From an uncultured Mariniphaga sp. (GTDB lineage: Bacteria > Bacteroidota > Bacteroidia > Bacteroidales > Prolixibacteraceae), in assembly GCA_964355145.1 (NCBI GenBank), contig CAYHDA010000001.1:19632-72159 (forward strand): a DNA stretch of 52,528 nucleotides. Direction: 5' to 3'. Shown piece by piece: positions 1,117-50,180 of this stretch. The notes beneath the pieces were generated by a model that worked only from the letters and a program-made list of their open reading frames with translations, ran no database searches and was not told the origin of the DNA. Numbering within the stretch: the stretch's first letter is position 1; the number at the start of each line of letters is the position of its first letter. The position numbers and the translations under genes were made by a program.

Positions 1117-1141
1117 TTTTGAATTTTGAGTACATTTGTTC

Positions 1142-1236
1142 TTTCATCAGAAGATAATTTGTTTTTTAATTGCCTGATGGAACACCTGAGTTATCTTCAT
1201 TCATGTTTGCGAAGTGCAGAATCATGGGTATTTCAT
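1142..1236 (-). repeat. Copy 1 of the 4-copy intergenic cassette. Mini-ORF MKYP* (1236-1222) overlaps by ATGA the 19-codon sORF MILHFANMNEDNSGVPSGN* (1225-1166).
   Basis: The reverse complement of 1142-1236 aligns without gaps to 49036-49130, with 84/95 identical positions by hand count. It lies 5' of gldB in the sense orientation. Confidence 0.7.
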
Positions 1237-11002: not shown

Positions 11003-12010
11003 ATGAAGACAATAAAAATAGCACTTATTGGTGCCGGCTATATTTCCAACTATCATGCACGCGGACTTCAGGCTTTACCTGATGTCGAAATCGTGGTTGT
11101 AGTTGGACTTCCCATTGAAGCAGCCCGGACTTTTGCTGATAAATACAATATTAAAGAGGTAACAACTGATGTTTCAACCCTCTATGGCAGAGCCGATATT
11201 GATGCTGTCGTAATTGGAACTCCCAATAAGTTCCATGCGCCTTTTGCGATCGAATTCCTGAAAAACGGGAAAGATGTATTTCTGGAAAAACCTATGGCGA
11301 TGAATGCTCAGGAGGGACTGCTGATTAAAAAAGCAGCTGATGCAGGAAATCAGTTGGTTATGACCGGACATATGTGGCGGTTTGACAATGATGTGAATTT
11401 TGTGAAAGAAACAGTCGATTCAGGGCAACTGGGCAAGATCGTTAAGACAAAAGGATACGGTATCCACGAAAATTGGGGACCGGCAGGGTGGTTTTCGCAA
11501 AAAGAACTCGCCGGAGGAGGTGCCCTTGCGGATATGGGTGTTCATGCGATAGACACGGCCCGCTATATCCTTGGAGATCCCCTTCCGAAAAAGGTATATG
11601 CGAAAATCGGTACTCATTATGGAAATTACGATGTTGATGACTCGGGAATTATCATGATCTCATGGGATAACGGAGCAGAGTCAATTATCGAAAGTGGATG
11701 GTGGCAACCTCATATGGATGGTCCGGAAGCTGCGACAGGCATCTATGGTACGAAAGGTTATGCCAATGTATTTCCAACCTATCTTAAGTTTAAAGTAGGT
11801 AATATTCCCGGGAAATTTGAAGCCAAATTACCCGCCAAAACAGAACATTGTGATCAGTCGATGTACAGCCGTCAGATGGCGCATTATGTTGATTGTATAC
11901 GATCGCGTAATCAACCCGTTCCCGGATTAACCGAAGGACAGATTATTTTAGATATTGTCGATGCAGCCTATAAATCAGCTGAAACCGGTGAGGTTGTGAA
12001 TTTGGGTTGA
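11003..12010 (+). CDS. Gfo/Idh/MocA family NAD(P)-dependent oxidoreductase
   Basis: Rossmann start IKIALIGAGYISNYH, the EKPMA motif, and a C-terminal alpha/beta oligomerisation domain. The ATG abuts the DegT TAA stop (11000-11002), so the two genes look tightly co-translated. Confidence 0.85.
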   Translation: MKTIKIALIGAGYISNYHARGLQALPDVEIVVVVGLPIEAARTFADKYNIKEVTTDVSTLYGRADIDAVVIGTPNKFHAPFAIEFLKNGKDVFLEKPMAMNAQEGLLIKKAADAGNQLVMTGHMWRFDNDVNFVKETVDSGQLGKIVKTKGYGIHENWGPAGWFSQKELAGGGALADMGVHAIDTARYILGDPLPKKVYAKIGTHYGNYDVDDSGIIMISWDNGAESIIESGWWQPHMDGPEAATGIYGTKGYANVFPTYLKFKVGNIPGKFEAKLPAKTEHCDQSMYSRQMAHYVDCIRSRNQPVPGLTEGQIILDIVDAAYKSAETGEVVNLG

Positions 12011-12065
12011 TGGAACAGGCGTGATTCTACGCTTCAGAAATTCGAATGAAGATATTAACCGCTAA
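12010..12065 (+). repeat. Copy 4 (short variant) of the intergenic cassette. Mini-ORF MEQA* (12010-12024) overlaps by GTGA a 14-codon sORF (V/M)ILRFRNSNEDINR* (12021-12065).
   Basis: The cores TGATTCTaCgCTTC and CGAATGAAGATA are shared with copies 1-3. The mini-ORF ATG overlaps the Gfo/Idh/MocA stop (TGATG). The cassette ends 11 nt before the GH2 start at 12077. Confidence 0.55.
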
Positions 12066-12076
12066 ACTTAGTCTTT

Positions 12077-14746
12077 ATGAGATCAGCCCTTTCTTGTGTT
12101 TATGGATTTATTACATCCTTAATTCTGTTGAATATTAGCTGTGTAAGTCCTGATCCCTCAGTGGTTCAGCTGAAAGAGAATTGGGAAATTCAGTCTTCGG
12201 CCACAATCAAAAGTACAGGTGAACAAATTTCATCCAATGAATTTCACCCGGTCAACTGGTATCCGGTAACGGTCCCAACAACAGTATTGGCTGCCTTGGT
12301 GGAGAATAAAGTTTATCCCGATCCCTTTTATGGAGAAAATCTAAAAGCAATACCAGGTTATAAACCGGGAAGCTGGATTTCGATGGCTAAAAACAGTCCT
12401 TTTTACTCATCGTGGTGGTACAGGACTAAATTTAGTATTCCTGCTGACAAAGCCGGGCAATACCTGACTTTGCACCTGAATGGAATTAACCTGAAGGCAA
12501 ATGTCTGGCTGAACGGTCATCTGATTGCCGATACAGTTCATGTAGTCGGGATGTTCCGAAGATTTGAATTCGACATTAATCAATGGGCAAAAACAGGTGG
12601 AGAGAACTGTCTGGCTATCGAAATATTTGGGCCCGGCAGAATTCCGGATGTCAAATATTATACTAAACAAGTTGAAGCGACTACCGGTTGGGATGACCAT
12701 AATCCTCAGCCACCAGACCTGAATATGGGAGTTTGGCAGAATGTCTATATTTCAGCAGATGGACCGGTATCAATCCGCAATCCGTATGTTGTAACCGATC
12801 TTGATCTTCCTTCGTTGGATCAGGCTCATCTTACGGTGTCGGCAAAAGTGACAAATAAAAGTGATAAAGCTGTTGATGGCGAACTCACTGGTGTAATTGA
12901 GAATATTCGTTTTTCAAAAAAAGTTAGCCTTGCTCCGCAAGAATCGAAGGTGGTGGAATTTACACCCGCCGAATTCAATCAGCTCAATATTAAAAATCCA
13001 AGGATCTGGTGGCCACATACCGTTGGAGCACAAGAGCTTTATGATTTAAATCTGTCCTTTAGTACCAAGGGCGGCATATCGGCTAAGGAAAAAGTCCGTT
13101 TCGGAATTCGCGAAGTTTCAACTTATATTAATAAAGACGGGTGGCGTGGCTATCAGGTCAATGGTAAAAATATTTTAATCCGGGGTGGTGCATGGATGAC
13201 CAGCGATATGTTATTGCGTCTGTCTGCCCGTCGGTACGAAGGACTAATCCGGTACGCGAAAGAGGCTGGATTTAATGCACTCAGATCCGAAGGTTTCTCA
13301 ATCCGCGAAACGGAAGAGTTCTATAATCTGTGCGATGAAAATGGCATTTTGGTGATCCAGCAATTTTTCGGACGTAACCTTCCCGATGAAAAACTGGCTG
13401 TCAATATTATTGAAGATATGCTGCTTCGAATTCGTAACCATCCCAGTTTAATCCATTTTTTAGGTCATGATGAAACTTTTCCTACAGAAAGTCTGGATAA
13501 AAGCTACCGTGAACTGATTGCAAAATACACGCCGGAACGCACTTACCAGCTTCATTCAGGCGCTTTTAATATCAACGACCGCTTTAAAACCGGAGGAACA
13601 CGCACCGGCACCCTTGAGCTTTGGAGTTATGCCAATCCTTCCCATTATTACACCCATAAAGACGATGGCGCCTGGGGATTTGCTCAGTCGGGCGGAATCG
13701 GGGGGATTTTTGCCCCTTATGAAAGCATGCGCAAAACCATTCCCGAAAGCGCTTTGTGGCCTGTTGATAATGAAACATTTTCGTTCCATACGGTTCTGCA
13801 GGGTTCTGATTATTTCACTGCCGGGCTCGAAGCTTTACAAAATCGTTATGGAAAGGCCACGGGAATTGTAGAATTCTGTACAAAGGGAATGGCCTTGAAT
13901 TATGAAAGTGCCCGGGGAATGTTCGAAGCTTATGCCCGGAATAAGTATGAAGCGCTCGGAATTACTACCTGGAAATATGATATGGCATGGCCTGCAGTTT
14001 ACAGCTGGCAATATGTCGACTGGTTTCTCAATGTAGGCGGAGCTTATTACGGCGCAAAAAAAGCTTGTGAACCATTGCATGTCCAGTATTCTTACGATGA
14101 TAATTCGATTTATGTAGTCAATAGTTTTTATAAAGACTTCAAAGGCCTTAAGGTAAATGCAAAAGTTTTCAACTTTGATTTAAGTGAGAAATATTCAAAA
14201 TCAGCTGTCGTTGATATCAGTCCCGATGGTAAAACCGAAGTTTTCAAAATTGAATTTCCCAAAGGTTTAAGCAAAACATTTTTCCTGAGATTAAAGCTTG
14301 AAGATCAGTCAGGAAAAGAGATAACTGATAATTTCTACTGGCTTTCAACTGTCAGAGATGTCGAAGGAACAAAGGCTGACACAAAAAGTCCTCGCGGATT
14401 TGACTGGGACTTATTCGTTGCAAAACCGAAATCCGTAGCTGATTTTACTGATCTTGAGAAACTTCCAAAAGTAGAGCTCGAAAAATCATATGCCATTTTG
14501 AAGGATAGCACAGAAGTTCAGGCGACGGTGAAAATCAAAAATAAAGGTCGAAATCTGGCTTTTATGATTCATCTCAGTGTATCCAATGGAGAAAATGGCG
14601 ATGAAATAAGCCCGGCTTACTGGAGTGATAATTATTTTTCGTTATTCCCGGGAGAAACCAAGGATGTAATGGTGCGGTTCAATAAAGTTGATCAGGGTAT
14701 TGTCCCGGCGATTTTAAAGGTCGATGGCTGGAATGTAAAACCATAA
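12077..14746 (+). CDS. Glycoside hydrolase family 2 lipoprotein, paralog of the 4750-7449 enzyme (CsxA-like subfamily) with a divergent active-site block
   Basis: 889 aa with a lipobox-like LLNISC. Blocks: LHLNGINLKANVWLNGHLI, IWWPHTVG, VNGKNILIRGGAW, NHPSLIHFLGHDETFP. WGFAQSGG aligns without gaps to WGFNTETC of the paralog. Confidence 0.75.
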   Translation: MRSALSCVYGFITSLILLNISCVSPDPSVVQLKENWEIQSSATIKSTGEQISSNEFHPVNWYPVTVPTTVLAALVENKVYPDPFYGENLKAIPGYKPGSWISMAKNSPFYSSWWYRTKFSIPADKAGQYLTLHLNGINLKANVWLNGHLIADTVHVVGMFRRFEFDINQWAKTGGENCLAIEIFGPGRIPDVKYYTKQVEATTGWDDHNPQPPDLNMGVWQNVYISADGPVSIRNPYVVTDLDLPSLDQAHLTVSAKVTNKSDKAVDGELTGVIENIRFSKKVSLAPQESKVVEFTPAEFNQLNIKNPRIWWPHTVGAQELYDLNLSFSTKGGISAKEKVRFGIREVSTYINKDGWRGYQVNGKNILIRGGAWMTSDMLLRLSARRYEGLIRYAKEAGFNALRSEGFSIRETEEFYNLCDENGILVIQQFFGRNLPDEKLAVNIIEDMLLRIRNHPSLIHFLGHDETFPTESLDKSYRELIAKYTPERTYQLHSGAFNINDRFKTGGTRTGTLELWSYANPSHYYTHKDDGAWGFAQSGGIGGIFAPYESMRKTIPESALWPVDNETFSFHTVLQGSDYFTAGLEALQNRYGKATGIVEFCTKGMALNYESARGMFEAYARNKYEALGITTWKYDMAWPAVYSWQYVDWFLNVGGAYYGAKKACEPLHVQYSYDDNSIYVVNSFYKDFKGLKVNAKVFNFDLSEKYSKSAVVDISPDGKTEVFKIEFPKGLSKTFFLRLKLEDQSGKEITDNFYWLSTVRDVEGTKADTKSPRGFDWDLFVAKPKSVADFTDLEKLPKVELEKSYAILKDSTEVQATVKIKNKGRNLAFMIHLSVSNGENGDEISPAYWSDNYFSLFPGETKDVMVRFNKVDQGIVPAILKVDGWNVKP

Positions 14747-16236: not shown

Positions 16237-18603
16237 ATGAAAAATCTCATTCCGGGACTGTTGTTCCTCCTTACCACACAATTAATCCTTCAGGGATGTG
16301 CCAATAAACAGTTGCCACAATTAGGCAAAGACAAAATTGAAAAAGTTATTGCAGCAATGACGCCTGATGAAAAAATTGGTATGACCGTTGGCGACGGGAA
16401 ATTTTTGCCGGCTGGTGATCCAAAAACTTCGGAGCAAGGATCAGGAATTATTATTGCCAACCAGAATTCAAAGATGGTCATTCCGCGGCTTTCCATCATG
16501 TCATCAGCCCTCACCGATGGTCCTACAGGGGTGAACAGGGATCCTCATCCGGCTGGAGCTAAAGAGTATACCTACGCGACGGCCTTTCCTACATCAACTT
16601 GCATGGCCGCAACGTGGAATCTTGAACTGATGACTCAGGTAGGAAAAGCTTTTGGCAATGAAGTCCTGGAATACGACTACGATGTTGTATTGATGCCGGC
16701 GCTGAATCTGCATCGGGATCCCAAGTGCGGGAGAAACTTCGAGTATTACTCCGAAGACCCCCTGCTTTCAGGAAAATTGTCCGCTGCAATCGTTAACGGC
16801 CTTCAATCCAATGGTATTGCGGCAACTTTAAAACATTTTCTGGCGAATAACCAGGAGACAAACAGGCGAACGTACAATGCGGTGATCAGTCAGCGGGCTT
16901 TGCGCGAAATTTATCTTCGGGGATTTGAAATCGCTGTTAAAGAAGGAAATCCCAAAGCGATAATGACCTCTTACAATAAAGTAAACGGTTACTATACCGC
17001 AGAAAATCCTGAGTTGTTAAATGATATTGTGCGCAAAGAGTGGGGATTTAAAGGCCTTTATATAACTGATTTTGATGGTTATGGAAGCGCAGTTGCCAAG
17101 GTTCGTGCAGGCAATAATATGCTTATGGGCGGCAATAAGGAAGAGGTGAAAGAACTTACAGAGGCATTGAAAGATAAAACGCTTGACGAAAAAACACTCA
17201 ACAGAAACCTTGCATATAATATGCAGCTCAAGTTAAACTCACCAAGGTCCAAGGGTTATATTCCAACCCTTAAACCCGATTTGGCGGCTCATGCCAAAAT
17301 TGCAAGAATGGCCGCCGGCGAGGGGCTGGTTCTTCTCAAAAATGATAAAATGACACTTCCTTTTAATCAAGTGAAAACCGTTGCTGTATTTGGTAAAATT
17401 TCCTATTACCTCATCGAGGCTGGAACAGGAAGCGGAGGAATCCGAAGCAATCAATATGCCATCTCTGTGAACGATGGTCTTAAATCCGCAGGCTACCAAG
17501 TGGTTAAAGAGCTTGAAGAGACCTATTCGGCATTTAATGCCGCTATTATGGAAAATAATATTGTGCCCGACTTTTTTAGAACGCCCAAAATGCTTGCCGA
17601 TAACGGGATTAAAGATAACAAAGCACCCGGACACTTTAAGAAAAGGCTTATTCCGTTTCATGATGAGATGGCGATGACAAAGGAAGAGGTTTCAAAACAA
17701 GTTGCTAATTCTGATATTGCGGTTATCACTATTGGTCGCAGCGGAGGTGAAAATTACGAAAATGGTTATATTCCGACTTCTGTGGCAGAACTCGATCTTG
17801 TGAAAAATGTCTGTGATGCATACCACGCTGCAGGTAAAAAAGTAGTGGTAATTCTCAATGTAGGAGGTGTTTGTGAGACTGCAAGCTGGCGTAATTATCC
17901 TGATGCAATTTTGCTGGCATGGCAACCCGGACAAGAGGGTGGAACAGCAATCGCCGATGTATTAAAAGGTGACGTTAACCCGTCAGGGAAGTTGCCTGAT
18001 TCTTTTTTCATGAAATATGAAGATGTTCCTTCTGCGAATACCTTCCCCGGAGAGCCTTCAGAAAACCCGGTCAACTCTTTCTACAAAGAGGGTATTTACG
18101 TGGGTTACCGCTACTACGACACCTTCAAAATTCCAACGGCTTACGAGTTTGGCTATGGATTATCATACACAACTTTTGAATATACCGGTCTGAAGCTTAG
18201 CAGTACAAGTTTCTCCAACAGAATGAATATCACCGTGATGGTGAAAAATACAGGCAAGGTGGCTGGCAAGGAGGTTGTTCAGCTCTACCTCTCAGCACCA
18301 GCCGGAGAACTTGAAAAGCCGGTTCAGGAGCTTAAAGGATTTGCAAAAACACAGTTACTCCAACCCGGAGAAAGTCAGCAATTATCATTTGAGCTTGATG
18401 CCATGTTACTTGCTTCTTTCCGAAGCGGAATCAGTGCCTGGGTGGCAGACAAGGGTGACTATGAAGTCCGTATCAGTGCTTCATCCAAGGACATCCGGCT
18501 TAAAGCATCCTTTAAATTACCTAAAGAGATCATCGTCGAAAAAGTACACGACGTGATGTACCCCAACTTCGCAATGGAAGAGCTAAGTCAGCATAAAAAA
18601 TAA
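16237..18603 (+). CDS. Glycoside hydrolase family 3 lipoprotein (beta-glucosidase-like)
   Basis: 788 aa with lipobox LILQGC. GH3 blocks RDPKCGRNFEYYSEDP, KHFLANNQETNRR, and the nucleophile context GLYITDFDG. C-terminal Fn3-like domain (YGLSYTTFEY ... VVQLYLSAP ... ELKGFAKT). Confidence 0.9.
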   Translation: MKNLIPGLLFLLTTQLILQGCANKQLPQLGKDKIEKVIAAMTPDEKIGMTVGDGKFLPAGDPKTSEQGSGIIIANQNSKMVIPRLSIMSSALTDGPTGVNRDPHPAGAKEYTYATAFPTSTCMAATWNLELMTQVGKAFGNEVLEYDYDVVLMPALNLHRDPKCGRNFEYYSEDPLLSGKLSAAIVNGLQSNGIAATLKHFLANNQETNRRTYNAVISQRALREIYLRGFEIAVKEGNPKAIMTSYNKVNGYYTAENPELLNDIVRKEWGFKGLYITDFDGYGSAVAKVRAGNNMLMGGNKEEVKELTEALKDKTLDEKTLNRNLAYNMQLKLNSPRSKGYIPTLKPDLAAHAKIARMAAGEGLVLLKNDKMTLPFNQVKTVAVFGKISYYLIEAGTGSGGIRSNQYAISVNDGLKSAGYQVVKELEETYSAFNAAIMENNIVPDFFRTPKMLADNGIKDNKAPGHFKKRLIPFHDEMAMTKEEVSKQVANSDIAVITIGRSGGENYENGYIPTSVAELDLVKNVCDAYHAAGKKVVVILNVGGVCETASWRNYPDAILLAWQPGQEGGTAIADVLKGDVNPSGKLPDSFFMKYEDVPSANTFPGEPSENPVNSFYKEGIYVGYRYYDTFKIPTAYEFGYGLSYTTFEYTGLKLSSTSFSNRMNITVMVKNTGKVAGKEVVQLYLSAPAGELEKPVQELKGFAKTQLLQPGESQQLSFELDAMLLASFRSGISAWVADKGDYEVRISASSKDIRLKASFKLPKEIIVEKVHDVMYPNFAMEELSQHKK

Positions 18604-18609
18604 CCGGGA

Positions 18610-20970
18610 ATGACGAAAAGGATAACTTCGGTATATATTCAATTGCTCTTTTTTGCAATGCTGCTTGCAATGCAAGGATGCCAAAATAACATATCTCCCC
18701 AATTGGGTAAAGATAGGTTGGAGGATGTTATTGCGGCACTAACCACAGAAGAGAAAATAGCTCTTACTGTAGGAGTTGGAGATGGGAAAACTCCACCTCC
18801 CGGCATGCCCGCTTACGACCCAAAATCCGGAATAAGTATCGAAGATGTCACAACAATGAATCATTCGCCTCTCTTTACTCCGACAGTGGATGGTGTACTA
18901 TGGGGAATACCCCGCTTGGGAATAAAATCGACGCTGATGGGTGGTATTACAATTGCTTCCGTTAATCCAAAAGATTCCACTCATGAGGTTCGTTACACTG
19001 CTTTTCCTTCTGAAACGGCAATGGCTGCAACATGGAATACCCCGTTGATCGAAAAGGTTGGTGAAGCGATCGGAAATGAGGTGCTGGAATCCAATGTAGA
19101 CATCATGCTTGAGCCGGGTTTGAATATTCAGCGCAATCCAATGTGCGGCCGCAATTTTGAATATTTTTCAGAAGATCCGCTGCTGTCGGGGAAAATGGCT
19201 GCGGCATATGTCCGCGGGGTGCAGTCTCAGGGAGTAGGTACTGCAATCAAGCATTTTGCTGCCAATAATCAGGAAACGAACAGGCGAACTTATGATGCCA
19301 TCATCAGCCAGCGGGCTCTGCGCGAAATCTATCTCCGGGGATTTGAAATTGCGGTAAAGGAGAGTCATCCATGGTCAATAATGACATCTTATAACAGGCT
19401 GAACGGATTTTATACTGCTGAAAATCCTGAGTTGCTCAAATCAATTGTTCGCAAAGAGTGGGGTTTCGATGGCCTTTTCATGACTGATTGGGACGGATTG
19501 GGAAGCGCAGTGGCCAAGATCAGAGGCGGATGTAACTTACTGATGGGTGGCAGTAAAGCAGAATCGGATGAACTTAAAAAGGCTGTGAAAAACAGAGAAC
19601 TGGATGAAAAAGAATTGGACAAAAGTCTGGAATATGTTCTGAAATTTAAAATGAGAACGCCTCGTTTCAAAGGTTACCAGCCAGCTTTGAGCTATAACAG
19701 TATTTTACATACTGAACTTGCAAGAGCATCGGCAGGTGAGGCGATGGTGTTGCTTAAAAACAAGGGTGCAATCCTCCCATTCAACGCCAATATTAAAACG
19801 GTTGCATTGTTTGGTAAAGGCTCTTATTATTTTGTAGCAAGCGGAACAGGCAGCGGCGAGTCGAAACCAAAACATTCCGTTACGGTAAATGAAGGGGTCA
19901 AAAATGCAGGTTATCAGGTTGTAAAATCCCTCGATGAAACCTATTCGACGTTTGTGGATACAATACTTGTGAATAACAGCAGCGTAGGCGACTATTTCAA
20001 AAGACGGATAATCCCCTTCCATTCAGAATATAATATATCTAAAGCAACAATCGCCGATCAGGTAGCGGTATCTGACATTGCTGTGGTTACCATTGGTCGT
20101 ACAGGTGGAGAAGGACACGATAATGGTTATATCCCACTCGATCATGTTGAGCAGAATCTATTACGCGATGTATGCGAAATCTATCACGCTGCAGGGAAAA
20201 AAGTAGTCGTAGTGCTCAATGTCGGAGGGGCTTTCGAAATTGCCGGATGGCACGACCTCCCCGATGCAATTCTGCTGGCCTGGCAAACCGGTCAGCAAGG
20301 GGGAAATGCTGTTGCTGATGTGCTCAAAGGAGCGATCAATCCTTCCGGAAAACTGCCCGTATCATTCCCCTTGAAGGTTGACGATGTTCCCTCAGCACCC
20401 TACTTTGCCAGCGATTCCGTACTAAAAAAAACCGACGCTAATCCGGTATACTACAACGAAGGAATTTATGTGGGCTATCGTTATTTCGATTCATTTAATG
20501 TGCCAGTGGCGTTCGAATTTGGTTACGGACTTTCCTATACGACTTTTGAATACACTGCTTTAACATTAAGCGGCAAAACATTTTCGGATAATATAAAGGT
20601 GAGCGTTAGTATAAAAAATACCGGAAAGGTTGCGGGCAAAGAGGTGGTTCAGTTATATCTCTCGGCTCCCAATAACAAAATTGAGAAGCCTGCGCATGAA
20701 CTTAAAGGATTTGCAAAAACAAAACTTCTTCAGCCCGGTGAAGTTCAGCAACTCTCCTTTGAACTTGATGCCCGCGCCCTGGCCTCTTTCTGGAGTGGTA
20801 TCGGTGCCTGGATAGCCGACATGGGTGAATACCAGGTACAAATTGGCTCATCTTCTAAAGATATTCGCCTCAAGGCAATGTTTACTTTACCAAAAGAGCT
20901 GGTGACTGAGCGTGTTTTTGACGTGCTTTTTCCTTCTGCAGGGCTTAACGAATTGAGTATTAAAAGATAA
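18610..20970 (+). CDS. Glycoside hydrolase family 3 lipoprotein, tandem paralog of the 16237-18603 enzyme
   Basis: 786 aa with lipobox LAMQGC. It has the same block structure (RNPMCGRNFEYFSEDP, KHFAANNQETNRR, GLFMTDWDG) and long near-identical C-terminal stretches. Confidence 0.9.
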   Translation: MTKRITSVYIQLLFFAMLLAMQGCQNNISPQLGKDRLEDVIAALTTEEKIALTVGVGDGKTPPPGMPAYDPKSGISIEDVTTMNHSPLFTPTVDGVLWGIPRLGIKSTLMGGITIASVNPKDSTHEVRYTAFPSETAMAATWNTPLIEKVGEAIGNEVLESNVDIMLEPGLNIQRNPMCGRNFEYFSEDPLLSGKMAAAYVRGVQSQGVGTAIKHFAANNQETNRRTYDAIISQRALREIYLRGFEIAVKESHPWSIMTSYNRLNGFYTAENPELLKSIVRKEWGFDGLFMTDWDGLGSAVAKIRGGCNLLMGGSKAESDELKKAVKNRELDEKELDKSLEYVLKFKMRTPRFKGYQPALSYNSILHTELARASAGEAMVLLKNKGAILPFNANIKTVALFGKGSYYFVASGTGSGESKPKHSVTVNEGVKNAGYQVVKSLDETYSTFVDTILVNNSSVGDYFKRRIIPFHSEYNISKATIADQVAVSDIAVVTIGRTGGEGHDNGYIPLDHVEQNLLRDVCEIYHAAGKKVVVVLNVGGAFEIAGWHDLPDAILLAWQTGQQGGNAVADVLKGAINPSGKLPVSFPLKVDDVPSAPYFASDSVLKKTDANPVYYNEGIYVGYRYFDSFNVPVAFEFGYGLSYTTFEYTALTLSGKTFSDNIKVSVSIKNTGKVAGKEVVQLYLSAPNNKIEKPAHELKGFAKTKLLQPGEVQQLSFELDARALASFWSGIGAWIADMGEYQVQIGSSSKDIRLKAMFTLPKELVTERVFDVLFPSAGLNELSIKR

Positions 20971-31403: not shown

Positions 31404-34400
31404 ATGAAAACAATCGTCAGAATTTTTATCTTGTTATTTCTCTTCAGCTCCTGCAGCGAAAAACCACATTTGAATGTTGTCAATCTGAAATGTGAGTATA
31501 AAGTAAATCCACTCGGCATAGATATTGAAAAACCACGGTTTAGCTGGATCATTGAATCTGCTCAGCGAGGTGTAAATCAGTCTGCTTTCCAAATACTCGT
31601 TTCTTCCGATTTAAAGAAACTGGACGAAAATATGCCTGATCTTTGGGATAGTCAGAAGGTTTCATCAGATAAATCCATCCAAATTCAATATGCCGGTAAC
31701 CCTCTTCAAAGCAATCAGAAATATTTTTGGAAAGTGAAAATCTGGGATCAGAATGGTAAAGTATATTCCAGTGAATCATCTTACTGGACTACCGGACTGT
31801 TCAAGGAATCGGATTGGAAAGCAAAATGGATTGGTCTCGACAAAGCGGTTGGCGAGGATGATCCGCAGGCATTACACCGGGTTCTCTCTGCAAGAATGTT
31901 GAGACATGAATTTATTATAGAAAAGAAGGTAAAATCTGCAACAGCTTTTATATCCGGTCTCGGATTATTTGAACTTTACCTTAACGGTGAAAAAATCGGA
32001 GATCAGGTATTGGCTCCCGGCCTGACGGAATACAATAAAAGAGCTTTTTATATGACTTTTGATGTGACTAAGTTTTTACATGCCGATAAAAATGCAATTG
32101 GTGTTATGCTTGGAAATGGGCGGTTCTTTTCTCCCAGAGCCGGGGGCGCCGAAAAATCCAGAACTTTTGGTTTTCCTAAGGTAATCTGTCAGTTAGAAGT
32201 ACAGTATGAGGATGGTACGGCAAGTACAATAATCACTGATGAATCATGGAAAATCACCACTAATGGCCCAATCCGCAAAAACAATGAATTTGACGGAGAG
32301 TTTTATGATGCCCGCATGGAGTTAAATGGCTGGAACAACACCAGCTTTAATGATGCAGACTGGATGAAAGCTGAACTTGTAGAGAAGCCGGGTGAAGTAT
32401 TGGTGGCTCAGCCTATTGATCCGATTAAAATAATGGATCAAATCGTTCCTGTTTCGGTGAAAGAAATAAAACCGGGTACTTATATTTTTGATATGGGGCA
32501 GAATATGGTGGGCTGGGTTGAATTATTGGTGAAGGGAAACAAAGGTGACAAAGTATCGCTCAGATTTGCTGAGACATTAAAAGACGATGGCAGTCTGTTT
32601 TTGGCGAATATCCGAGGTGCAGAAGTTACGGATACTTATATTTTGAAAGGCGACGGAGCAGAAAAATGGGAACCTCGGTTCACTTATCATGGATTCCGGT
32701 TTGTAGAAATGACCGGATACCCGGGTATCCCGGCATTATCAGCTGTTAAAGGGAAAGTTGTTCACGACGCGCTTGAAGTTACAGGCACATTCACCTGTTC
32801 CAATCCATTGATCAATAGTATTTATAAGAATGCTTACTGGGGAATCAGGGGGAATTACAGAAGCATACCGACCGATTGTCCTCAAAGAGACGAAAGACAA
32901 GGCTGGCTGGGTGATCGCTCTGCAGAATGTACCGGCGAGAGTTATATTTTTGATATTTCGAAACTCTACAGTAAATGGGTAACCGACATGAAGGATGCCC
33001 AGCTGACGAGCGGAAGTCTTCCCGATGTGGCCCCCTCCTATTGGCCTACCTACAGCGATAATACCACCTGGCCGGGAACCTTCCTTTTTGCTTCCGACAT
33101 GCTATATACTCAATATGGCGATTTAAAAACGATAGAAAGCAATTACCCGTCAATGCAAAAATGGATACAGCACATGAATCAATTCGTTGTAAACGGGTTA
33201 ATGACAAAAGATACCTATGGAGACTGGTGTGTTCCGCCTGAAGATGTTAAACTCATTCTTTCAAGTGATCCTCAGAGGATTACCAGTGCAGAATACATTG
33301 GGACTGCCTATTTCTATTATGAATTAAGACTAATGGAAAAATTTGCACGTTTACTGAGCAAAAAGAGTGAGGCTGAAGAATATTTCAAAAGTGCAGCTGC
33401 CATGAAAATCGCTTTTAACGACCGCTTTCTGGATAAAAATGAGGTTAAATACAGCAACAATACCTGCACTGCTAATATTTTGGCACTTGCATTTAACCTG
33501 GTTCCGGATGAATACCGGGCCAAAATTGTGGATAAACTTCTTCAGAAAATTTTAGGTGAAAACGAAGGTCATGTTGGGAACGGAATTATTGGAGGCCAAT
33601 GGTTGATGCGGGTATTAACAGAAAACGGGCATGGCGATGTTGCTTATACACTTGCATCCCAAAGCACCTATCCGGGCTGGGGTTATATGGTGAAACGCGG
33701 CGCAACAACGATTTGGGAGCTCTGGAACGGAGATTATGGTGATCCCGGTATGAATTCAGGGAATCATGTGATGCTGCTGGGGGATCTGATCATTTGGTAC
33801 TATGAGAATCTGGCAGGGATCAAAGCCGATTCCGATTCTCCCGCATTCAGGCATATCATCATGAAGCCTTGCATATTGGGAGATTTAACCTATGCAGATG
33901 CGACGTATAACTCCATCTACGGAAAGATAAAGAGCGGGTGGAGACTTGAAAAGGATCATTTTACCTGGCATGTAACAATTCCTGCTAATACAACAGCCAC
34001 CGTTTACGTTCCTACCCTTGGCAAAGAGGAGGTGATGGAAGGGAACAAACTGGCTTCATCTGTTGAGGGGATTAAATTTGTCAAGTGGGATGATAATCGG
34101 GCTGTTTTTGAGATTAAGTCGGGAGCATATTCATTTACTTCAAAGGGAGCCATAAAAATGGTCTCCAGACCTTATATTCCGACACCATCAATCACTCCCA
34201 AAGATACAATTCTGAAAGCCGGAAATAAACTTCAGGTTAAAATTGCATGTAAGGATTCATCTGCTGTAATTCGCTATACTACAGATGGATCGGAAGTTAA
34301 TGAACAATCCCCGGTTTACACCGGTACACTGGAAATATCGTGCAATACGATGGTGCTGGCACAGGCCTTTGCAGAGGGATCTCATTCCAGCAATCAGGTA

Positions 34401-42300: not shown

Positions 42301-45300
42301 ATGAAAACCTTTTTTCAGTTTATTCTGATTTTGAGTATGGTAGTGGTGACTTCATGCACAAAACAAAAACAACCCGTTGATTATGTGGATCCTTTTCTGG
42401 GAACCTCTGGTAATCGCTGGATGCTTTTCCCCGGACCTTGCCTGCCCTTTGGGATGGTTAAGTTAAGTCCGGATAATACCGACGACTATGCCATGGATGC
42501 CGGTTACGAATATAAAAACAACAGTATTTGTGGCTTTGGTCATGTTCACTCGTGGGCGATGGGGAGTTTTTTAACCATGCCGGGAACGGGTAAAATTAAG
42601 ATCCAGCCTGGTAAAATTGATCATCCTGAATCAGGTTATCGTTCACGGATCAATCATAATACCGAAAAGGCTTCACCGGGTTACTATTCAGTTCTATTGG
42701 AGGATTACGGAATAAAAGCCGAATTAACAGCTACCACACGAGGTGGATTTCAGCGCTACACTTTTCCAAAAGGTGCAGATGGGCATATCCTCTTTGATTT
42801 ACAGGTGCCGGAAGAGTGGAAACCACTTCTCGTTGAGGCCTCGGTCAGAAAAGTCAGCGATCGGGAGATCGAAGGCTCTGTTCATCGCTCCGCCGGATTT
42901 AATGACTATGTTCTTCATTTTGTTGCCAGGTTCAACAGGCCATTCGAAACGATGGGAGGCTGGCAAGGAACTGATATTATTGATGATACAAAGGAGATTC
43001 GTGTTGTCAACGATCTGGATATAGGAGCATTCCTGAAATTTAAACCGGGTAACGACCAGGTTGTTTTAATGGAAACGGGTATATCTTATGTCAGTACCGA
43101 ACAGGCACGAATTAACCTGCAAACCGAACTGGATCCGTACAACTGGGATTTTGATGCAGCACATAAAGGGGCCAGGGATATATGGAACCAGCTTTTGGGA
43201 AAGATTAAAATTGAGGGCGGAACCGAAAGCGATAAAACGAAGTTTTACACCAACCTTTATCATTCATACAGCGCCCGGACCATCTACAGCGATGTGAACG
43301 GAAAATATACCGACATGTGCGAAAAGGTGCAGCAATTGGCTGATCCCGAATCTCCGGTTTATGGGTGTGATGCTTTCTGGATGACTTTCTGGAATCTGAA
43401 CCAGCTATGGGGCCTCGTTACCCCTGATGTTAATGAGAAGTGGGTGAAGTCGTTGCTTGAGATTTATGATAAGGGCGGATGGCTGTCTAATGGTCCTGGC
43501 GGAATTGAATACTCCGGCATCATGGTGGCCGAACATGAAATTCCACTTATCGTAGGTGCCTGGCAAAAAGGGATCCGCAATTTTGATGCGAACAAAGCTT
43601 ACAAAGCGATGAAAGAGATTCAGACAACACCCTCAAAACCTCACGAATGCGGGGGATATGCGGGAAATAGAAACATCGTCCCTTATATGGCAATGGGCTT
43701 CGTTCCTGCCGACGATGGTCCGGTATCAAATACACTCGAATATGCCTTCGATGACTGGTGTGTGGCACAAATGGCCAAATCATTGGGCAAGCTGGACGAT
43801 TATAACTATTTCATGCGAAGAGCCCAGAATTACCGAAACGTTTTTGATCCCTCTACAGGTTACATGCGCCCCAAATATGCCGGGGGTCCATGGATGGAGG
43901 AGTTCTCCCCAATCAAGAGTGCCGTTGGGAAAGAGGATAATTTTGGTACCAGGGATTATGTTGAGGCGAATGCATGGCAATATAGCTGGTTCGTTCCTCA
44001 CGATCTAAAAGGCCTAATTGAATTAATGGGAAAAGATGTATTCAACAACAGGCTGGAAGAGGGATTCAAAAAGTCGCTGCCTATTTTTACGAGCGCATTT
44101 GTGAACCATAGCAATCAGCCTAATATGCAGGCTGCCTGGCTTTTTAACTATTCTGGAAAACCTTGGCTGACACAGTACTGGGTACGGGAAATTATTGATA
44201 AATACTATGGCACCTCCCCTGTCGACGGCTATCCCGGCGATGAAGATGAAGGTCAAATGGGAGCCTGGTATGTGATGAGTGCGATGGGCCTTTTTGAGAT
44301 GGATGGAGGTGCCTCAACAGAACCCGCGTATGAATTATCGGGTCCTGTCTTTAATAAAATAACGATAAAGCTTGATCCGAAATATTATAAAGGCGGTGAA
44401 TTCGTGATTGAGGCAAAAAACAGTTCATCTGTAAACAGGTATATCCAATCAGCAACACTGAACGGAAAACCGTTAAATCAATTCTGGATCAGACATTCGG
44501 AGCTGGTAAAGGGCGGAAGGCTGGTTTTTGAAATGGGTTCTGAGCCCAATAAAGACTGGGCATCTAACAGTGAACATCCTCAAAAAAACGATATTGCAAC
44601 AATTGTCGCTACACCCTCCCTTATCGAAACAAACCGGATATTTTTAAAAGATTGTTCAGTGAAAATGTCATGTAATACACAAGGGGCTGAAATCTATTTT
44701 ACGCTCGATGGTTCACAACCCGATAAAAATTCCAGGTTATACAAAGAGCCCTTTATCGTCAATCAGACAACTACAATTAAAATGACTGCTTTTAAAGGAG
44801 ATGAAAAAAGTTTGCCTGCAGAAGCAGCGCTTACTAAAACCGGCCTGAGTAAACCGATTTCTCCCGGCGAGGTGGAGCAGGGTCTTCATTATAAGTATAT
44901 TCATGGTGATTTTCGGATGGTAAACGAATTTGCTGACATTAAACCGGTGAAAACCGGAATAATTCCGGTTTTCACCATTGAGCCCCGCGAAAGAGATGTG
45001 TTTTTTGCTTTTGATTATGAGGGCTTTATCCGTATACCGAAAGACGGACTTTACACCCTCTATCTGACCACCAATGATGGTGGAAGATTGATGATTGATG
45101 GCCGGCTGCTGATCAATAATGATGGATTGCATCCTCTGACTGAGATTTACAAACCTGTTGCTTTACAAGCGGGACTTCATCCTGTTTCTGTAAAATATTT
45201 CCAGGAAGGTGGGGGTAATGGCCTGAAAGTTTCATGGCAGGGTCCCGGAATTGGGAAAGAGGAAATTCCCGCTTCTGTATTGTTTCATAGGAAAAACCCA

Positions 45301-45303
45301 TGA
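42301..45303 (+). CDS. Glycoside hydrolase family 92 alpha-mannosidase lipoprotein with C-terminal Fn3-like plus PA14 module
   Basis: 1000 aa with lipobox VVTSC. GH92 blocks VDPFLGTSG, GFGHVHSW and GDEDEGQMGAWY. The PA14 tail has GLYTLYLTTNDGGRLMIDGRLLINNDGLHP. Confidence 0.9.
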   Translation: MKTFFQFILILSMVVVTSCTKQKQPVDYVDPFLGTSGNRWMLFPGPCLPFGMVKLSPDNTDDYAMDAGYEYKNNSICGFGHVHSWAMGSFLTMPGTGKIKIQPGKIDHPESGYRSRINHNTEKASPGYYSVLLEDYGIKAELTATTRGGFQRYTFPKGADGHILFDLQVPEEWKPLLVEASVRKVSDREIEGSVHRSAGFNDYVLHFVARFNRPFETMGGWQGTDIIDDTKEIRVVNDLDIGAFLKFKPGNDQVVLMETGISYVSTEQARINLQTELDPYNWDFDAAHKGARDIWNQLLGKIKIEGGTESDKTKFYTNLYHSYSARTIYSDVNGKYTDMCEKVQQLADPESPVYGCDAFWMTFWNLNQLWGLVTPDVNEKWVKSLLEIYDKGGWLSNGPGGIEYSGIMVAEHEIPLIVGAWQKGIRNFDANKAYKAMKEIQTTPSKPHECGGYAGNRNIVPYMAMGFVPADDGPVSNTLEYAFDDWCVAQMAKSLGKLDDYNYFMRRAQNYRNVFDPSTGYMRPKYAGGPWMEEFSPIKSAVGKEDNFGTRDYVEANAWQYSWFVPHDLKGLIELMGKDVFNNRLEEGFKKSLPIFTSAFVNHSNQPNMQAAWLFNYSGKPWLTQYWVREIIDKYYGTSPVDGYPGDEDEGQMGAWYVMSAMGLFEMDGGASTEPAYELSGPVFNKITIKLDPKYYKGGEFVIEAKNSSSVNRYIQSATLNGKPLNQFWIRHSELVKGGRLVFEMGSEPNKDWASNSEHPQKNDIATIVATPSLIETNRIFLKDCSVKMSCNTQGAEIYFTLDGSQPDKNSRLYKEPFIVNQTTTIKMTAFKGDEKSLPAEAALTKTGLSKPISPGEVEQGLHYKYIHGDFRMVNEFADIKPVKTGIIPVFTIEPRERDVFFAFDYEGFIRIPKDGLYTLYLTTNDGGRLMIDGRLLINNDGLHPLTEIYKPVALQAGLHPVSVKYFQEGGGNGLKVSWQGPGIGKEEIPASVLFHRKNP

Positions 45304-46608: not shown

Positions 46609-48969
46609 ATGAAACAAATCCTCAGAATGTTGAAGTATTTAATGGTTGGCATACTCTCGCTGATGGTTATTGCGGGATCTTTGCTTCTGGCTGTCTACAT
46701 CAGATATCAGCGTACAGTTGGTGTTAAGCAAGGTCAGTTGCAGGTAACAGCCAAACCCGGCGAGTTAGGTCAATGGGTTAATCCTTTCATTGGAACAGGC
46801 GGTTTCCCCACTTATACCAGTGCGGATGATATTCCGGGAGTTACACTGCCCTTTGGAATGGTTCGGTTAAGTCCTGATACAGAGTTTTTTCTGGGTTCTT
46901 TATTTGGAAAGGAAAAAACTGTGAGCACTGCCGGTTACTATTATGGCGATCATAAGATTATGGGTTTCAGTCATACCCGAATGATCGGTACAGGAGCCTA
47001 TGATGGCGGACATTTCAGGGTTCTGCCCGTCATTGGCAATAGTGGTCAAAAAGATTATCTGGCTGAACGGTACAATCTATTTTCCCACAGGGATGAGGTC
47101 GCTTTCCCCGGTTTTTATGCTGTGAGGTTCCAAAAACAAGGCGTACTCGCAGAGCTGACAGCAGGCGAACACACCGGATTTCACCGGTACACCTTTTCAA
47201 AAGAGGAGATGCCTCATATCCTGATTGATGTTTCCAGTGCACTGGGACATGGCAAAACAACAGAGGGAGAGGTTCATGTTATTCGTGATAAACAAGAAGT
47301 TGTTGGTGCGATAAAAACTTTTGGCTCATTCGCGGGACGCTATGGGGGTGAGAAAATTTATTTTGCAGCTCATTTCAACCAGCCTTTTGCAGGTTATACA
47401 TTATGGTCTGATAAAATTTCTTATCAGAATAAATCTGATGCTCAGGGAGATAAATTAGGTGCTGATTTATCTTTTAATAAATTGGGCACCGAACAAGTTG
47501 TAGAACTTAAACTGGGAATCTCGTACGTAAGTGTCGAAAATGCCAGAGCCAATCTGGAAGCCGAGGCAGGTGATGCAAGTTTTGATGAGATCGTAGCCAA
47601 AGCCAGACAGGCATGGGAAGATAAACTTGGCACGATAAAAATAGAGGGTGGCAGCGATGATCAGAAACATATCTTCTATACTGCCCTTTATCATTCGCTT
47701 CAGATGCCCACCCTTTTTAATGATGTCAATGGCGAATATATGGGTTTTGACAAAAAAGTGCATAAAACGACCGATTTTCGTTATTTTACCGATCTGTCAC
47801 TATGGGATACCTTCCGTACAATACATCCGCTATATACATTAATCACTCCCAAAGACCAGCGCGATATGATGGTTTCTTTGGTGAAGATGTGCGAGCAAGG
47901 CGGCGTCCTTCCGCGTTGGCCCTCGGGATATGGCTATACCGGTTCTATGCTTGGCGCTTCGGCTGATATTGTTATCACAGAATCGTATCTTAAAGGGATT
48001 CATAATTTCGATGTTGAAACGGCCTATCAGGCAATGCGTAAAGCTGCATTGGGCATCGATATTCCGAAAGAAGGGTTTAAGCCAAGAGGTGGTATGACCG
48101 AATGTCTGAAATATGGATATTGCCCTGATGATCTGATGGATAAATCAATCAGCAAAACCCTGGAATACGCCTATGCCGACGATGCCATTTCTAAACTGGC
48201 AAATGCGCTGGGTCATAATGAAGATGCCGGGCTATTTAAAGAACATTCGGCATTTTATCGCAATATCTGGAATCCGGAAACCCAATATTTTCACCCCCGA
48301 AACGCCTCTGGTGAGTTTGTGAAGAAATTTAAACCGCTAATGTTAACTTATACGGATTACGGACACGAATACACGAACGCTTATGTCGAAGGGAGTGCCT
48401 TGCAATGGCGGTGGGCGTTGTTCTTTGATCCGGAAGGGTTGATTTCACTTTTTAAAACGAAAGAATATTTTGTAAGTGAACTTAACGATTTTTTTGCACT
48501 CTCAGATCCCAAGCGGGGTCCCTGGCATCCAGGATCGTATTACTGGCATGGCAATGAGCCCGATCTTCATGCGGCTTATCTTTTCAATTCCGCTGGCCGA
48601 CCGGATCTGACACAGAAATGGGTTCGCTGGATTCTGGATAATAAATACGGCCCAGGATATGAAGGGATTGATGGCGACGATGATGCCGGAACGCTTTCAT
48701 CATGGTACATCTGGAGTTCACTTGGATTATATCCCGTAGCCGGATCAGATGTTTACCAGATTGGTGCACCACTTTTCAGGAAAGCAGTGGTGAACATTGG
48801 TGATAAAATGCTTACCATTGTGGCCGATAATTATGCCTCTCAGAATAAATATGTCCGAAAGGTGTGGTTGAATGATGTGCTGCTTGATCGTTTTTGGTTT
48901 AAACATCAGGAAATTGCACAAGGAGGTGTTTTACGTTTTGAGATGAGCGAAACACTAGTAATTCAATGA
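46609..48969 (+). CDS. Glycoside hydrolase family 92 alpha-mannosidase with N-terminal membrane anchor and no PA14 tail
   Basis: 786 aa. A single N-terminal TM helix (LMVGILSLMVIAGSLLLAVYI). GH92 blocks VNPFIGTGG, GFSHTRMIGTG, LSLWDTFRTIHPLY, YWHGNEPDLHAAYLFNSAG and GDDDAGTLSSWY. Confidence 0.9.
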   Translation: MKQILRMLKYLMVGILSLMVIAGSLLLAVYIRYQRTVGVKQGQLQVTAKPGELGQWVNPFIGTGGFPTYTSADDIPGVTLPFGMVRLSPDTEFFLGSLFGKEKTVSTAGYYYGDHKIMGFSHTRMIGTGAYDGGHFRVLPVIGNSGQKDYLAERYNLFSHRDEVAFPGFYAVRFQKQGVLAELTAGEHTGFHRYTFSKEEMPHILIDVSSALGHGKTTEGEVHVIRDKQEVVGAIKTFGSFAGRYGGEKIYFAAHFNQPFAGYTLWSDKISYQNKSDAQGDKLGADLSFNKLGTEQVVELKLGISYVSVENARANLEAEAGDASFDEIVAKARQAWEDKLGTIKIEGGSDDQKHIFYTALYHSLQMPTLFNDVNGEYMGFDKKVHKTTDFRYFTDLSLWDTFRTIHPLYTLITPKDQRDMMVSLVKMCEQGGVLPRWPSGYGYTGSMLGASADIVITESYLKGIHNFDVETAYQAMRKAALGIDIPKEGFKPRGGMTECLKYGYCPDDLMDKSISKTLEYAYADDAISKLANALGHNEDAGLFKEHSAFYRNIWNPETQYFHPRNASGEFVKKFKPLMLTYTDYGHEYTNAYVEGSALQWRWALFFDPEGLISLFKTKEYFVSELNDFFALSDPKRGPWHPGSYYWHGNEPDLHAAYLFNSAGRPDLTQKWVRWILDNKYGPGYEGIDGDDDAGTLSSWYIWSSLGLYPVAGSDVYQIGAPLFRKAVVNIGDKMLTIVADNYASQNKYVRKVWLNDVLLDRFWFKHQEIAQGGVLRFEMSETLVIQ

Positions 48970-49035: not shown

Positions 49036-49130
49036 ATGAAACACCCATGATTGTACACTTCGCAAACACGAATGAAGATAACTCAGGCAGGCTATCAGGC
49101 AATTAATAAATAAATTATCTTCTGATGAAA
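49036..49130 (+). repeat. Copy 2 of the intergenic cassette. Mini-ORF MKHP* (49036-49050) overlaps by ATGA the 19-codon sORF MIVHFANTNEDNSGRLSGN* (49047-49106). The cassette tail CTGATGAAA supplies the start codon of the next gene.
   Basis: 84/95 identity to the reverse complement of 1142-1236, with no gaps. Start, frame and TAA stop of the sORF are conserved in three copies. Confidence 0.7.
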
Positions 49131-50180
49131 TTTTTTTCTCTTATTATAATACTTCCATTTTTTTTGCTTTCAACTGCACTTGGCAGAGAAACGGGTTTTA
49201 ATCCAAGCCAAGGGGAAGAAAATAACGGAATCAAGGATGCGAAAACCGCTAATCCTGAGCCTGATTATAGTAATCTTAAAAATTGGGCCGCCTCTCCATT
49301 CAAAGTCGATGCCAGTGACAGTATTCCCGATTTTTTGAAAGATGAGGTTAGGGATACGAGAGCCGATGTGTTCTTTATCCATCCGACATCCTTTTTCGGT
49401 GATGAAGAAAAAGCTGAATGGAATGCTGATGTCAATGATACGATAGTCAATAATATGACCGATTCAAGGTCGATATTATTTCAAACAACGGTTTTTAATG
49501 GCAGTTGCCGGGTTTTTGCTCCCCGATACCGACAGGGTAATATGAAGGCTTTTTATGTCTTTGGTACACCTAACGCCGTTCGCGCTTTCGATCTGGCATA
49601 CAGCGATGTACGTAAAGCTTTTCTGTATTTCCTTAGTCATTACAACAAAAAACGTCCAATTATAATTGCCTCACACAGCCAGGGTACGCTTCATGCCATT
49701 CGGTTATTACAGGAATTCTTTGACGGCACTCCACTGCAGAAACGATTGGTGTGTGCTTATATTGTTGGTTATCAGATTAAAAAAGACGCTTTTAAAAAAC
49801 TTCCGGTAGGTGAATCTGCAGACCAGACCGGATGTTTTGTGGGATGGCGCAGCTATTCAAAAGGCGAAATCCCCAAAGGTGCTGCGGCTGAAAAAGGAAA
49901 TTCAGTTTGCGTCAACCCGTTAACATGGACCACCTCTGAAATATGGGCCTCTCCGGATCTTCATCCGGGCATCATGAACGGCTTTAGAACCATCATCCCT
50001 CACTCTGCCGGTGCCGGCATTGAATCGGCATCTAAAATACTTTGGGTTGATGCGCCGGGTCTTAAAGATGATAAGGATCAAAAACCTAAGAACCTTCATA
50101 TTTACGATTACAATATTTTCTGGATGAATATCCGGCAAAATGTAAAACTACGTATAGACGCTTATTATGCAAAGCAATAA
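49125..50180 (+). CDS. DUF3089 family alpha/beta-hydrolase (lipase/esterase-like), secreted
   Basis: Signal peptide. The family-typical blocks are ADVFFIHPTSFFG and the nucleophile elbow ASHSQGTLH. Confidence 0.65.
   Translation: MKFFSLIIILPFFLLSTALGRETGFNPSQGEENNGIKDAKTANPEPDYSNLKNWAASPFKVDASDSIPDFLKDEVRDTRADVFFIHPTSFFGDEEKAEWNADVNDTIVNNMTDSRSILFQTTVFNGSCRVFAPRYRQGNMKAFYVFGTPNAVRAFDLAYSDVRKAFLYFLSHYNKKRPIIIASHSQGTLHAIRLLQEFFDGTPLQKRLVCAYIVGYQIKKDAFKKLPVGESADQTGCFVGWRSYSKGEIPKGAAAEKGNSVCVNPLTWTTSEIWASPDLHPGIMNGFRTIIPHSAGAGIESASKILWVDAPGLKDDKDQKPKNLHIYDYNIFWMNIRQNVKLRIDAYYAKQ

Follow-up and report, generated by a model that had tools for sequence, protein, structure and literature searches.

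A small module at gene starts of Mariniphaga-like Prolixibacteraceae conserves a hairpin rather than reading frames and is probably a mobile element

How does one short sequence come to stand in front of several unrelated genes of a single genomic region, and what in it is conserved? The question is raised by a stretch of 52,528 nucleotides (the window) from an uncultured Mariniphaga sp., a Bacteroidota polysaccharide-utilisation region with GH2, GH3, GH92, GH78, BNR and DUF3089 genes together with gldB. An earlier note on its sequence had described a four-copy cassette of overlapping micro-ORFs, a 4-codon unit leading into a small ORF (sORF) of 19 codons, and had left it undecided whether selection acts on one peptide, on two or on an RNA/DNA element. 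The nearest public relative is a metagenomic strain with a 99% identical GH92 (P0001; loci L007-L009), the next nearest is the Mariniphaga sp. MAG ELA493 (GCA_037133495.1, locus L027; GldB 93% identical), and L030 (GldB 73% identical) is the outgroup locus. Apart from the cassette, the window contains two adjacent GH3 paralogues (16237-18603 and 18610-20970) that share a 221-nt stretch of 71% identity (repeat D1) and represent a tandem gene duplication. The first GH92 of a further relative is split into three or four fragments in L023 (1322-3886) and intact in L010 (965-3892), two assemblies of that one relative, which reflects either pseudogenisation or long-read indel errors.

All four copies were found where the earlier note had placed them (Table 1), and a repeat finder recovered the same copies; in shuffles, 0 to 0.02 chance matches to the core patterns are expected. 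The 84 identities over 95 gap-free positions between copies 1 and 2 were exactly reproduced, and the gap-free similarity of copy 3 to copy 1 holds over 83 nt with 67 identities instead of the 69 given earlier. Copy 4 is present and significant, but only as the 5' 45 nt of the module: a covariance-model (CM) search found no 3' module there, and the relic begins on the stop codon of a gene for a GFO-family oxidoreductase, with 22 nt separating it from the GH2 start at 12077. The 19-codon frame ending in AAT TAA was found in copies 1-3, and the second open frame (MKITQVFHQAIKKQIIF) is likewise present. The 4-codon unit has the described form except in copy 3, where it lacks a start codon (AGG) and constitutes the tail, RKNP and stop, of the upstream gene GH92 42301-45303. 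The first 15 nt of copy 3 (AGGAAAAACCCATGA, 45289-45303) are the last four codons and the stop of this gene, and the protein of the relative L010 ends in FHHKITQL; since copy 3 supplies the C-terminal codons, its insertion has replaced the tail of the protein. A further CM hit at 34254-34294 was rejected as a chance hairpin within a gene.

Table 1. Coordinates of units, relics, target site and insert carriers (window unless a locus is named).
Feature	Position	Strand	Score or remark
Copy 1, full type-A unit	1142-1236	minus	CM 70.8 bits
Copy 1, 5' ATGAAA	1236-1231	minus	
Copy 1, hairpin arm TTCCATCAG	1182-1174	minus	
Copy 1, hairpin arm CTGATGAAA	1150-1142	minus	
Copy 2, full type-A unit	49036-49130	plus	CM 59 bits
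Copy 2, 5' ATGAAA	49036-49041	plus	
Copy 2, hairpin arm GGCTATCAG	49090-49098	plus	
Copy 2, hairpin arm CTGATGAAA	49122-49130	plus	
Copy 3, type-A unit without 3' arm and without 3' ATGAAA	45289-45372	plus	nhmmer E = 1.3e-23
Copy 4, relic, 5' half of type-A unit only	12010-12054	plus	nhmmer E = 2.1e-5, model positions 5-50
Unoccupied target, single ATGAAA starting GH2 4750-7449	4750-4755	plus	filled in sister genome L027
Type-A unit at GH2 start	L027 6261-6355	minus	ATGAAA on both sides
Palindromic insert	L002 14270-14291		
Palindromic insert	L024 4543-4564		
Palindromic insert	L027 9907-9928		

Collection scans, a peptide-word search, and profile and covariance-model searches of every retrieved locus revealed further copies in related contigs and one phage contig, as the earlier note had proposed to check. 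With the window included, 11 contigs carry 15 units with a 3' module (c1, c2, L001, L002a, L002b, L010B, L011C, L024C, L024D, L025B, L026B, L026C, L027a, L027c1 and L033), besides the relics c3 and c4 and a 5' fragment in L024. Their hosts are Prolixibacteraceae-like contigs and the phage contig L011, a genuine phage fragment that encodes a terminase, a major head protein, a protease, an endolysin and an adaptor and in which the unit sits between two structural-operon genes, its ATG overlapping the upstream stop (TAATG) and its last codon overlapping the next start (ATGA). Four sequence types, A-D, differ in their 5' and middle parts and have common ends, 5' ATGAAA(Y)(R)..CCAT and 3' (G)TTCCATnnnGC(A/C)ATTAAAAAACAAATTATnnnnnn followed directly by ATGAAA. 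Every type thus combines a 5' ATGAAA, an internal TTCCAT, an A-rich loop of 21-25 nt and a 3' end abutting a second ATGAAA; the conserved A-rich stretch within the unit is GCAATTAAAAAACAAATTAT. The end of the unit is formed by the three bases before the second ATGAAA or ATGAAT, and this hexamer usually belongs to what follows, either as the start of a gene or as the opening six bases of another unit. A type-A unit measures ~89 nt plus the repeated ATGAAA, two or three units of different types form head-to-tail tandem stacks in L024 and L026, and copies at unrelated loci of different organisms are 92-96% identical.

The yield of the individual searches was as follows. An exact-pattern scan of genome contigs returned 1 locus, the pattern being too strict, as two more copies in the same MAG were found later; a metagenome scan returned 1 true locus and 4 chance matches; viral scans returned L011 only, besides an unrelated phage coding region in L012-L020; and GenBank phages and PLSDB plasmids gave chance matches only. 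No Rfam family matched the window at gathering score, and nothing meaningful was found at E up to 10 around copy 2 or at E up to 1 in L011 or L024-L026. The literature searched contains no description of such an element and no annotated relative matches it either, in line with the earlier note, in which the module was not recognised as any described family. Pfam screens and precomputed annotations of the window and of most of the ~260 kb that the related loci comprise (L011 partly, with PHROGs) showed no transposase, recombinase or reverse transcriptase. An integrase domain was likewise absent from both, and the units are scattered and do not form one array. Some units have a long form with a palindromic insert of 21-22 nt, T(C/A)CCGATAA(A/G)TCGGGACA(G/A)GC, between GTTC and TAT of the 5' hairpin arm (Table 1). 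Copy 1 is short in the window and long in its L027 orthologue, and window copy 2 (GGCAGGCTAT) resembles a deletion derivative of the long form. At L026 490-735 (P0121), the ENA gene call spans two tandem units with TGA read as W, the wrong genetic code having apparently been used.

Orthologous sites with and without a unit bear out the earlier idea of a portable cassette. The start of GH2 is the cleanest of the four sites compared: the window allele reads TTTTTAACCA, a single ATGAAA and AGACCC, whereas the syntenic L027 allele reads TTATTAACCA, ATGAAA, a unit running from CACCCATGAATCTGCGC to ATTATCTTCTT (CACCC...TCTTCTT between the hexamers), a second ATGAAA and AGTCC; the site is empty in the outgroup L030. 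The copy-1 site is occupied in the window and, by the long form, in L027 and is empty in L030, where the spacer is otherwise alignable (TACGCCA ATCAAT AGAACAAATG). Neither L010 nor L021 has the element at the copy-3 site (GH92-BNR junction, 26 and 3 nt, respectively) or at the copy-2 site (GH92-DUF3089 junction, 37 and 78 nt), and the 99%-identical strain has both copies. In L022, a DUF1801 gene occupies the copy-2 site and the copy-3 site has different neighbours; a covariance-model search found no unit at either. L033 carries no element at the copy-2 and copy-3 sites, and its orthologues of GH92 46609-48969 and DUF3089 49125-50180 form one fused ORF of 1104 aa (10001-13315; GCA_030655115.1, JAURWG010000459.1), the DUF3089 signal peptide being gone at the junction (RFEMSDMPFDRNTLKKSDSEPDYSNL). 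The empty outgroups favour insertion, though deletion between two ATGAAA repeats could mimic an empty site.

Full units are flanked by a 6-nt direct repeat that is invariably ATGAAA or ATGAAT, and a repeat of constant sequence reads equally as target duplication or as part of the element. At the copy-1 site of L027, the 5' hexamer is ATGAAA, the 3' hexamer is ATGAAT and the empty site is ATCAAT, which at this one site favours an element-borne 5' ATGAAA over duplication. Between the window and L027, copy 1 is ~18% diverged with a 21-nt indel and its flanks differ by ~4%, so that individual copies seem weakly constrained. At the L001 unit, and at no other, the direct repeat on the two flanks is 15 nt long and perfect (ATCTTGTGATGAAAC, 5187-5201 and 5268-5282) instead of 6 nt; gene conversion between the native upstream region and the 3' end of the element, or the remnant of an earlier unit, could be the cause.

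What the units share beyond their ends is a hairpin, H2, in which TTCCATnnn pairs with nnnATGAAA across the A-rich loop. The 15 units display seven nnn/nnn combinations (CAG/CTG, CAC/GTG, TTG/CAA, CTG/CAG, ACG/CGT, AAG/CTT and CAT/ATG). In their alignment 80.7% of cells are paired and four pairs change on both sides; the covariation score is 0.313 compared with 0.106 ± 0.026 in shuffles (0 of 500 reach the score) and at most 0.129 in slid controls. One position, C or A opposite A, is mismatched in 15 of 15 units. Separate RNAalifold predictions for types A, B and C agree in a two-hairpin layout, with a 5' hairpin (H1) that begins inside the 5' ATGAAA and the 3' hairpin H2 ending in the 3' ATG; H1 of type B is a 12-bp stem with a G-C to A-U exchange. 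Whole-unit RNA folds of both strands were no better than shuffles (z from -0.9 to +0.7). Because the boundary of the element falls between nnn and ATGAAA, the rest of the 3' arm comes from the target or the next unit or, where a circle or tandem forms, from the 5' end of the element itself. For a different stem that had been suggested before, GAAGATAA/TTATCTTC, complementarity holds in only four type-A copies, which are nearly identical to one another; it is lost in the diverged c3 and L001, and types B-D have no such stem.

The reading frames show no comparable conservation. Among six type-A units, the 19-codon frame has CTG instead of ATG in L001 and in the L027 version of copy 1, and in L027a it contains a stop, made by the compensatory stem change that turns CAG into AAG; in the second frame, c2 shows an internal stop and L027a lacks the ATG. 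Variable columns per codon position number 8/7/8 and 7/9/10 in the two frames of these six units, which reveals no bias. Selection on the mini-ORF or on the 19-codon sORF, which the earlier note had considered, finds no support, given these lost starts, the stop in L027a, the frame switches described below and the missing codon-position bias; copies with broken frames and conserved nucleotides, which the note had said would argue for a pure RNA/DNA element, are at hand. In types B and C, however, the second frame is read as single ORFs, 21-31 codons long, which meet their neighbours exactly (TAATG on the upstream side, ATGA on the downstream side) and end in a C-terminal motif common to three database proteins. 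It is therefore conceivable that the module represents a gene for a very small protein that ends in FH(L/Q)AIKKQII (FHLAIKKQII in these ORFs), perhaps phage-derived, with frameshifted pseudogenes as window copies. We regard this as very improbable: besides c2 and L027a, the frame is broken in L026C, where a 1-nt insertion leads into another frame (VPSGN and stop), and in L002b, where an A-run longer by 2 nt shifts it again. The 3' 39 nt of L011C and L024C are identical, the 3' stretch being conserved as nucleotides with synonymous change nearly absent, and the N-terminal two thirds of the two differ mostly by non-synonymous changes. The variable codons are explained by compensatory stem changes, and a codon-degenerate scan of viral contigs found nothing beyond L011. 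The constraint conserved in the family is the H2 hairpin and not the reading frames. Judged from such comparisons, the apparent micro-peptides look incidental, and overlapping micro-ORFs in modules of this kind need not encode peptides, which is a warning for annotators.

The genes downstream of the units are varied (glycosidases, lipoproteins, GldB, 6-phosphogluconolactonase and a phage structural-operon gene), and their common feature is an ATGAAA start. That they encode exported proteins, as had been thought from the window, is not a rule, given that units elsewhere precede the gene of a cytoplasmic 6-phosphogluconolactonase (L001, pgl) and the phage structural-operon gene (L011). The reported orientation stands in the sense that the cassette always faces a downstream ATGAAA, the insertion site lying immediately 5' of ATGAAW throughout. 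The 3' ATG of copy 2 (49125) is the DUF3089 start codon, the 3' ATGAAA of copy 1 lies 34 nt before the gldB ATG (1107), and copy 3 ends ~30 nt before the BNR ATG (45404). Seven of 29 scored window genes begin with ATGAAA, as does GH2 4750 outside that count; 71 of the 86 ATGAAA hexamers of the window are inside genes, and all copies, within the window and outside it, occupy intergenic positions or gene ends. The 3' ATGAAA of copy 1 also opens a 15-codon ORF (MKEQMYSKFKNVFYD and stop; window 1105-1147, minus strand) whose stop overlaps the gldB start region (TATGATTAA); the corresponding stretch is not an ORF in the empty-site relative L030.

The position upstream of several glycoside-hydrolase genes of one cluster, together with the conserved A/T-rich block, could also indicate a shared promoter or operator, that is, a DNA site for a regulator of the local polysaccharide-utilisation genes. 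This explanation is highly unlikely in our judgement, as the module also precedes gldB, pgl and the phage structural-operon gene, is absent from the same gene cluster in relatives and, by inspection of the four window copies, has no Bacteroidetes -7 motif (TAnnTTTG) on either strand; moreover, the covariation points to a folded single strand and not to a duplex binding site. An antisense small RNA with its own promoter was rejected as well, there being no TAnnTTTG motif and no terminator.

A role in translation is a more substantial rival. The hairpin in the mRNA would sequester the downstream AUG, and translation of the upstream mini-ORF or sORF, ending in the loop (AAT TAA) or on the start (UGAUG or AUGA), would open the hairpin or hand over ribosomes, so that the gene would become translationally coupled and the module would act as a portable translational leader; this is compatible with mobility. 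The start codon does lie in the 3' arm of the covarying stem, some ORF ends inside or at the hairpin in every type, and the units are strictly co-oriented with the downstream gene. The hairpin is predicted to be more stable as sense RNA (-6.3 kcal/mol) than as single-stranded DNA (~-2.3 kcal/mol), and sense-strand U.G pairs occur in 4 of 15 units, which indicates that an RNA role fits better than a DNA role. Initiation in Flavobacterium johnsoniae benefits from A at -12/-13 (also at -3 and -6) and is impaired by secondary structure around the start (PMC6847099), and the loop places AAA at -11 to -13 relative to the downstream start. With the start codon contained in the hairpin and AAA so placed, the putative delivery of ribosomes to the downstream start by the cassette is possible. 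Against a translational leader, none of the ORFs keeps its start, frame or stop across the units, neither copy 1 nor the L025 unit lies directly at a gene start, copy 3 persists without its 3' arm, copy 1 diverges faster than its flanks, relatives express the same genes without the element, and the antisense strand folds better still (-9.7 kcal/mol, z = -2.55). Co-orientation would follow automatically from an oriented target. Taken together, we consider a leader function possible but somewhat unlikely, and the energies favouring RNA and the U.G pairs make an RNA-level role a serious, non-exclusive rival close to what the earlier note had proposed.

The reading that we prefer, with a probability of roughly 70%, is that the modules are small non-autonomous insertion elements of Mariniphaga-like Prolixibacteraceae and of at least one of their phages. 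A putative enzyme acting in trans would insert the unit immediately 5' of a genomic ATGAAW, with the internal TTCCAT matching the element to its target as well as to its own 5' end. The hairpin would then span the junction of element and target, and also that of a circular or tandem form (CTG joined to ATGAAACACCC). Copies would survive mainly at gene starts, where the gene retains its own start codon and frame. Such a gene would also gain an A-rich upstream region with AAA at the position favoured by Bacteroidetes mRNAs, and translation arriving from the old upstream region would be halted within 2-4 codons (MKHP and stop in type A, MK and stop in type B). The mini-ORF and the sORFs would thus be by-products of the nucleotide sequence.

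A bolder form of this proposal, which we find doubtful, would make the module a self-guided micro-transposon without a gene of its own. Pairing of TTCCAT with ATGAAA would home it to start codons, and its path would include a circular or tandem junction in which the H2 hairpin is formed anew, much as with an integron attC or an IS200/IS605 guide. After insertion it would serve as a portable translation-initiation region of the Bacteroidetes type and rewire the initiation of the downstream gene. Small mobile elements are usually tolerated by landing between genes, whereas insertions of this family seem to hit the six bases with which genes begin and to survive because the start codon stays intact and the unit supplies an A-rich initiation region. 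Confirmation would make the family a natural case of start-codon-directed insertion, possibly with target choice by complementarity within a ~90-nt element. Bacteroidota do not use Shine-Dalgarno pairing, and filled and empty alleles of the same gene in sister genomes would then offer a natural experiment on their initiation.

Several known types of repeat were compared with the family and set aside: a diversity-generating retroelement repeat, since the differences are not adenine-specific; a tRNA-derived SINE, for want of a tRNA-like box; and a Xer/tyrosine-recombinase core, as no inverted arms surround ATGAAA. Leader-peptide or uORF coupling (ermC-type attenuation, MS2-type) likewise places a short upstream ORF beside a hairpin containing the downstream start codon. 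A structure occluding the downstream start is predicted here as well (AUG in the 3' arm of H2), but a conserved leader ORF was not found, the module is mobile and relatives do without it. The PeSL of T4-type phages, described by Arbiol, Comeau and Krisch (2010), are mobile regulatory cassettes with an early promoter that undergo homologous recombination between copies. They resemble the present units as short intergenic stem-loop modules with expression signals that move between gene junctions and differ in that the units have no promoter and a start codon as target.

Among mobile elements, IS200/IS605 and its derivatives (PATEs; REP/RAYT) come close in having no inverted ends, inserting beside a specific short sequence without true duplication, and carrying hairpins near both ends and an internal guide complementary to both boundaries. 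The guide tetranucleotides of IS608 are reportedly complementary to its cleavage sites (Barabas 2008; Guynet 2009). As in PATE and REP elements, hairpins are predicted near both ends of the units (H1 and H2, with large loops and low stability as DNA) and insertion is adjacent to ATGAAW. Unlike in IS200/IS605, the loop is 21-25 nt long, the stem is weak as DNA and the boundary lies inside the stem; searches of the 52.5-kb window and of most of the ~260 kb covered by related loci (Pfam; L011 partly, with PHROGs) gave no Y1 (HUH) transposase or TnpB. Integron cassettes with attC sites have a core at each of the two cassette boundaries, which pairs with an inverse core within the 3' end, and last bases that belong to the next cassette or target, with the structure kept, the sequence variable and an unpaired position fixed. 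They also stack head-to-tail in one orientation, as the units do in L024 and L026. Their core is GTTRRRY/RYYYAAC and not ATGAAA/TTCCAT, however, and the present units are gene-less, scattered at gene starts on chromosome and phage, and have no IntI/attI platform nearby. With differing core motifs and neither a Y1 transposase nor IntI seen, the family falls under neither definition.

The closest resemblance in behaviour is to MITEs such as the Neisseria Correia elements and MITEAba12, which are similarly ~100 nt long, multi-copy, intergenic and without convincing coding capacity. The likeness extends to insertion polymorphism in close relatives, a short direct repeat at the bounds, co-transcription with neighbours and the capacity to reshape expression signals. 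Terminal inverted repeats set MITEs apart: the 5' end (ATGAAACACCCATG) and the 3' end (AAATTATCTTCTG) of the units are not complementary, and the repeat finder revealed no such arms. In contrast to MITEs, the units have an orientation fixed by the target and an internal sequence complementary to it, and the repeat at their flanks is one and the same hexamer throughout, ATGAAA, a gene start. Without inverted ends the family lies outside the MITE definition, yet, being short, multi-copy and insertion-polymorphic, it behaves like a miniature non-autonomous element.
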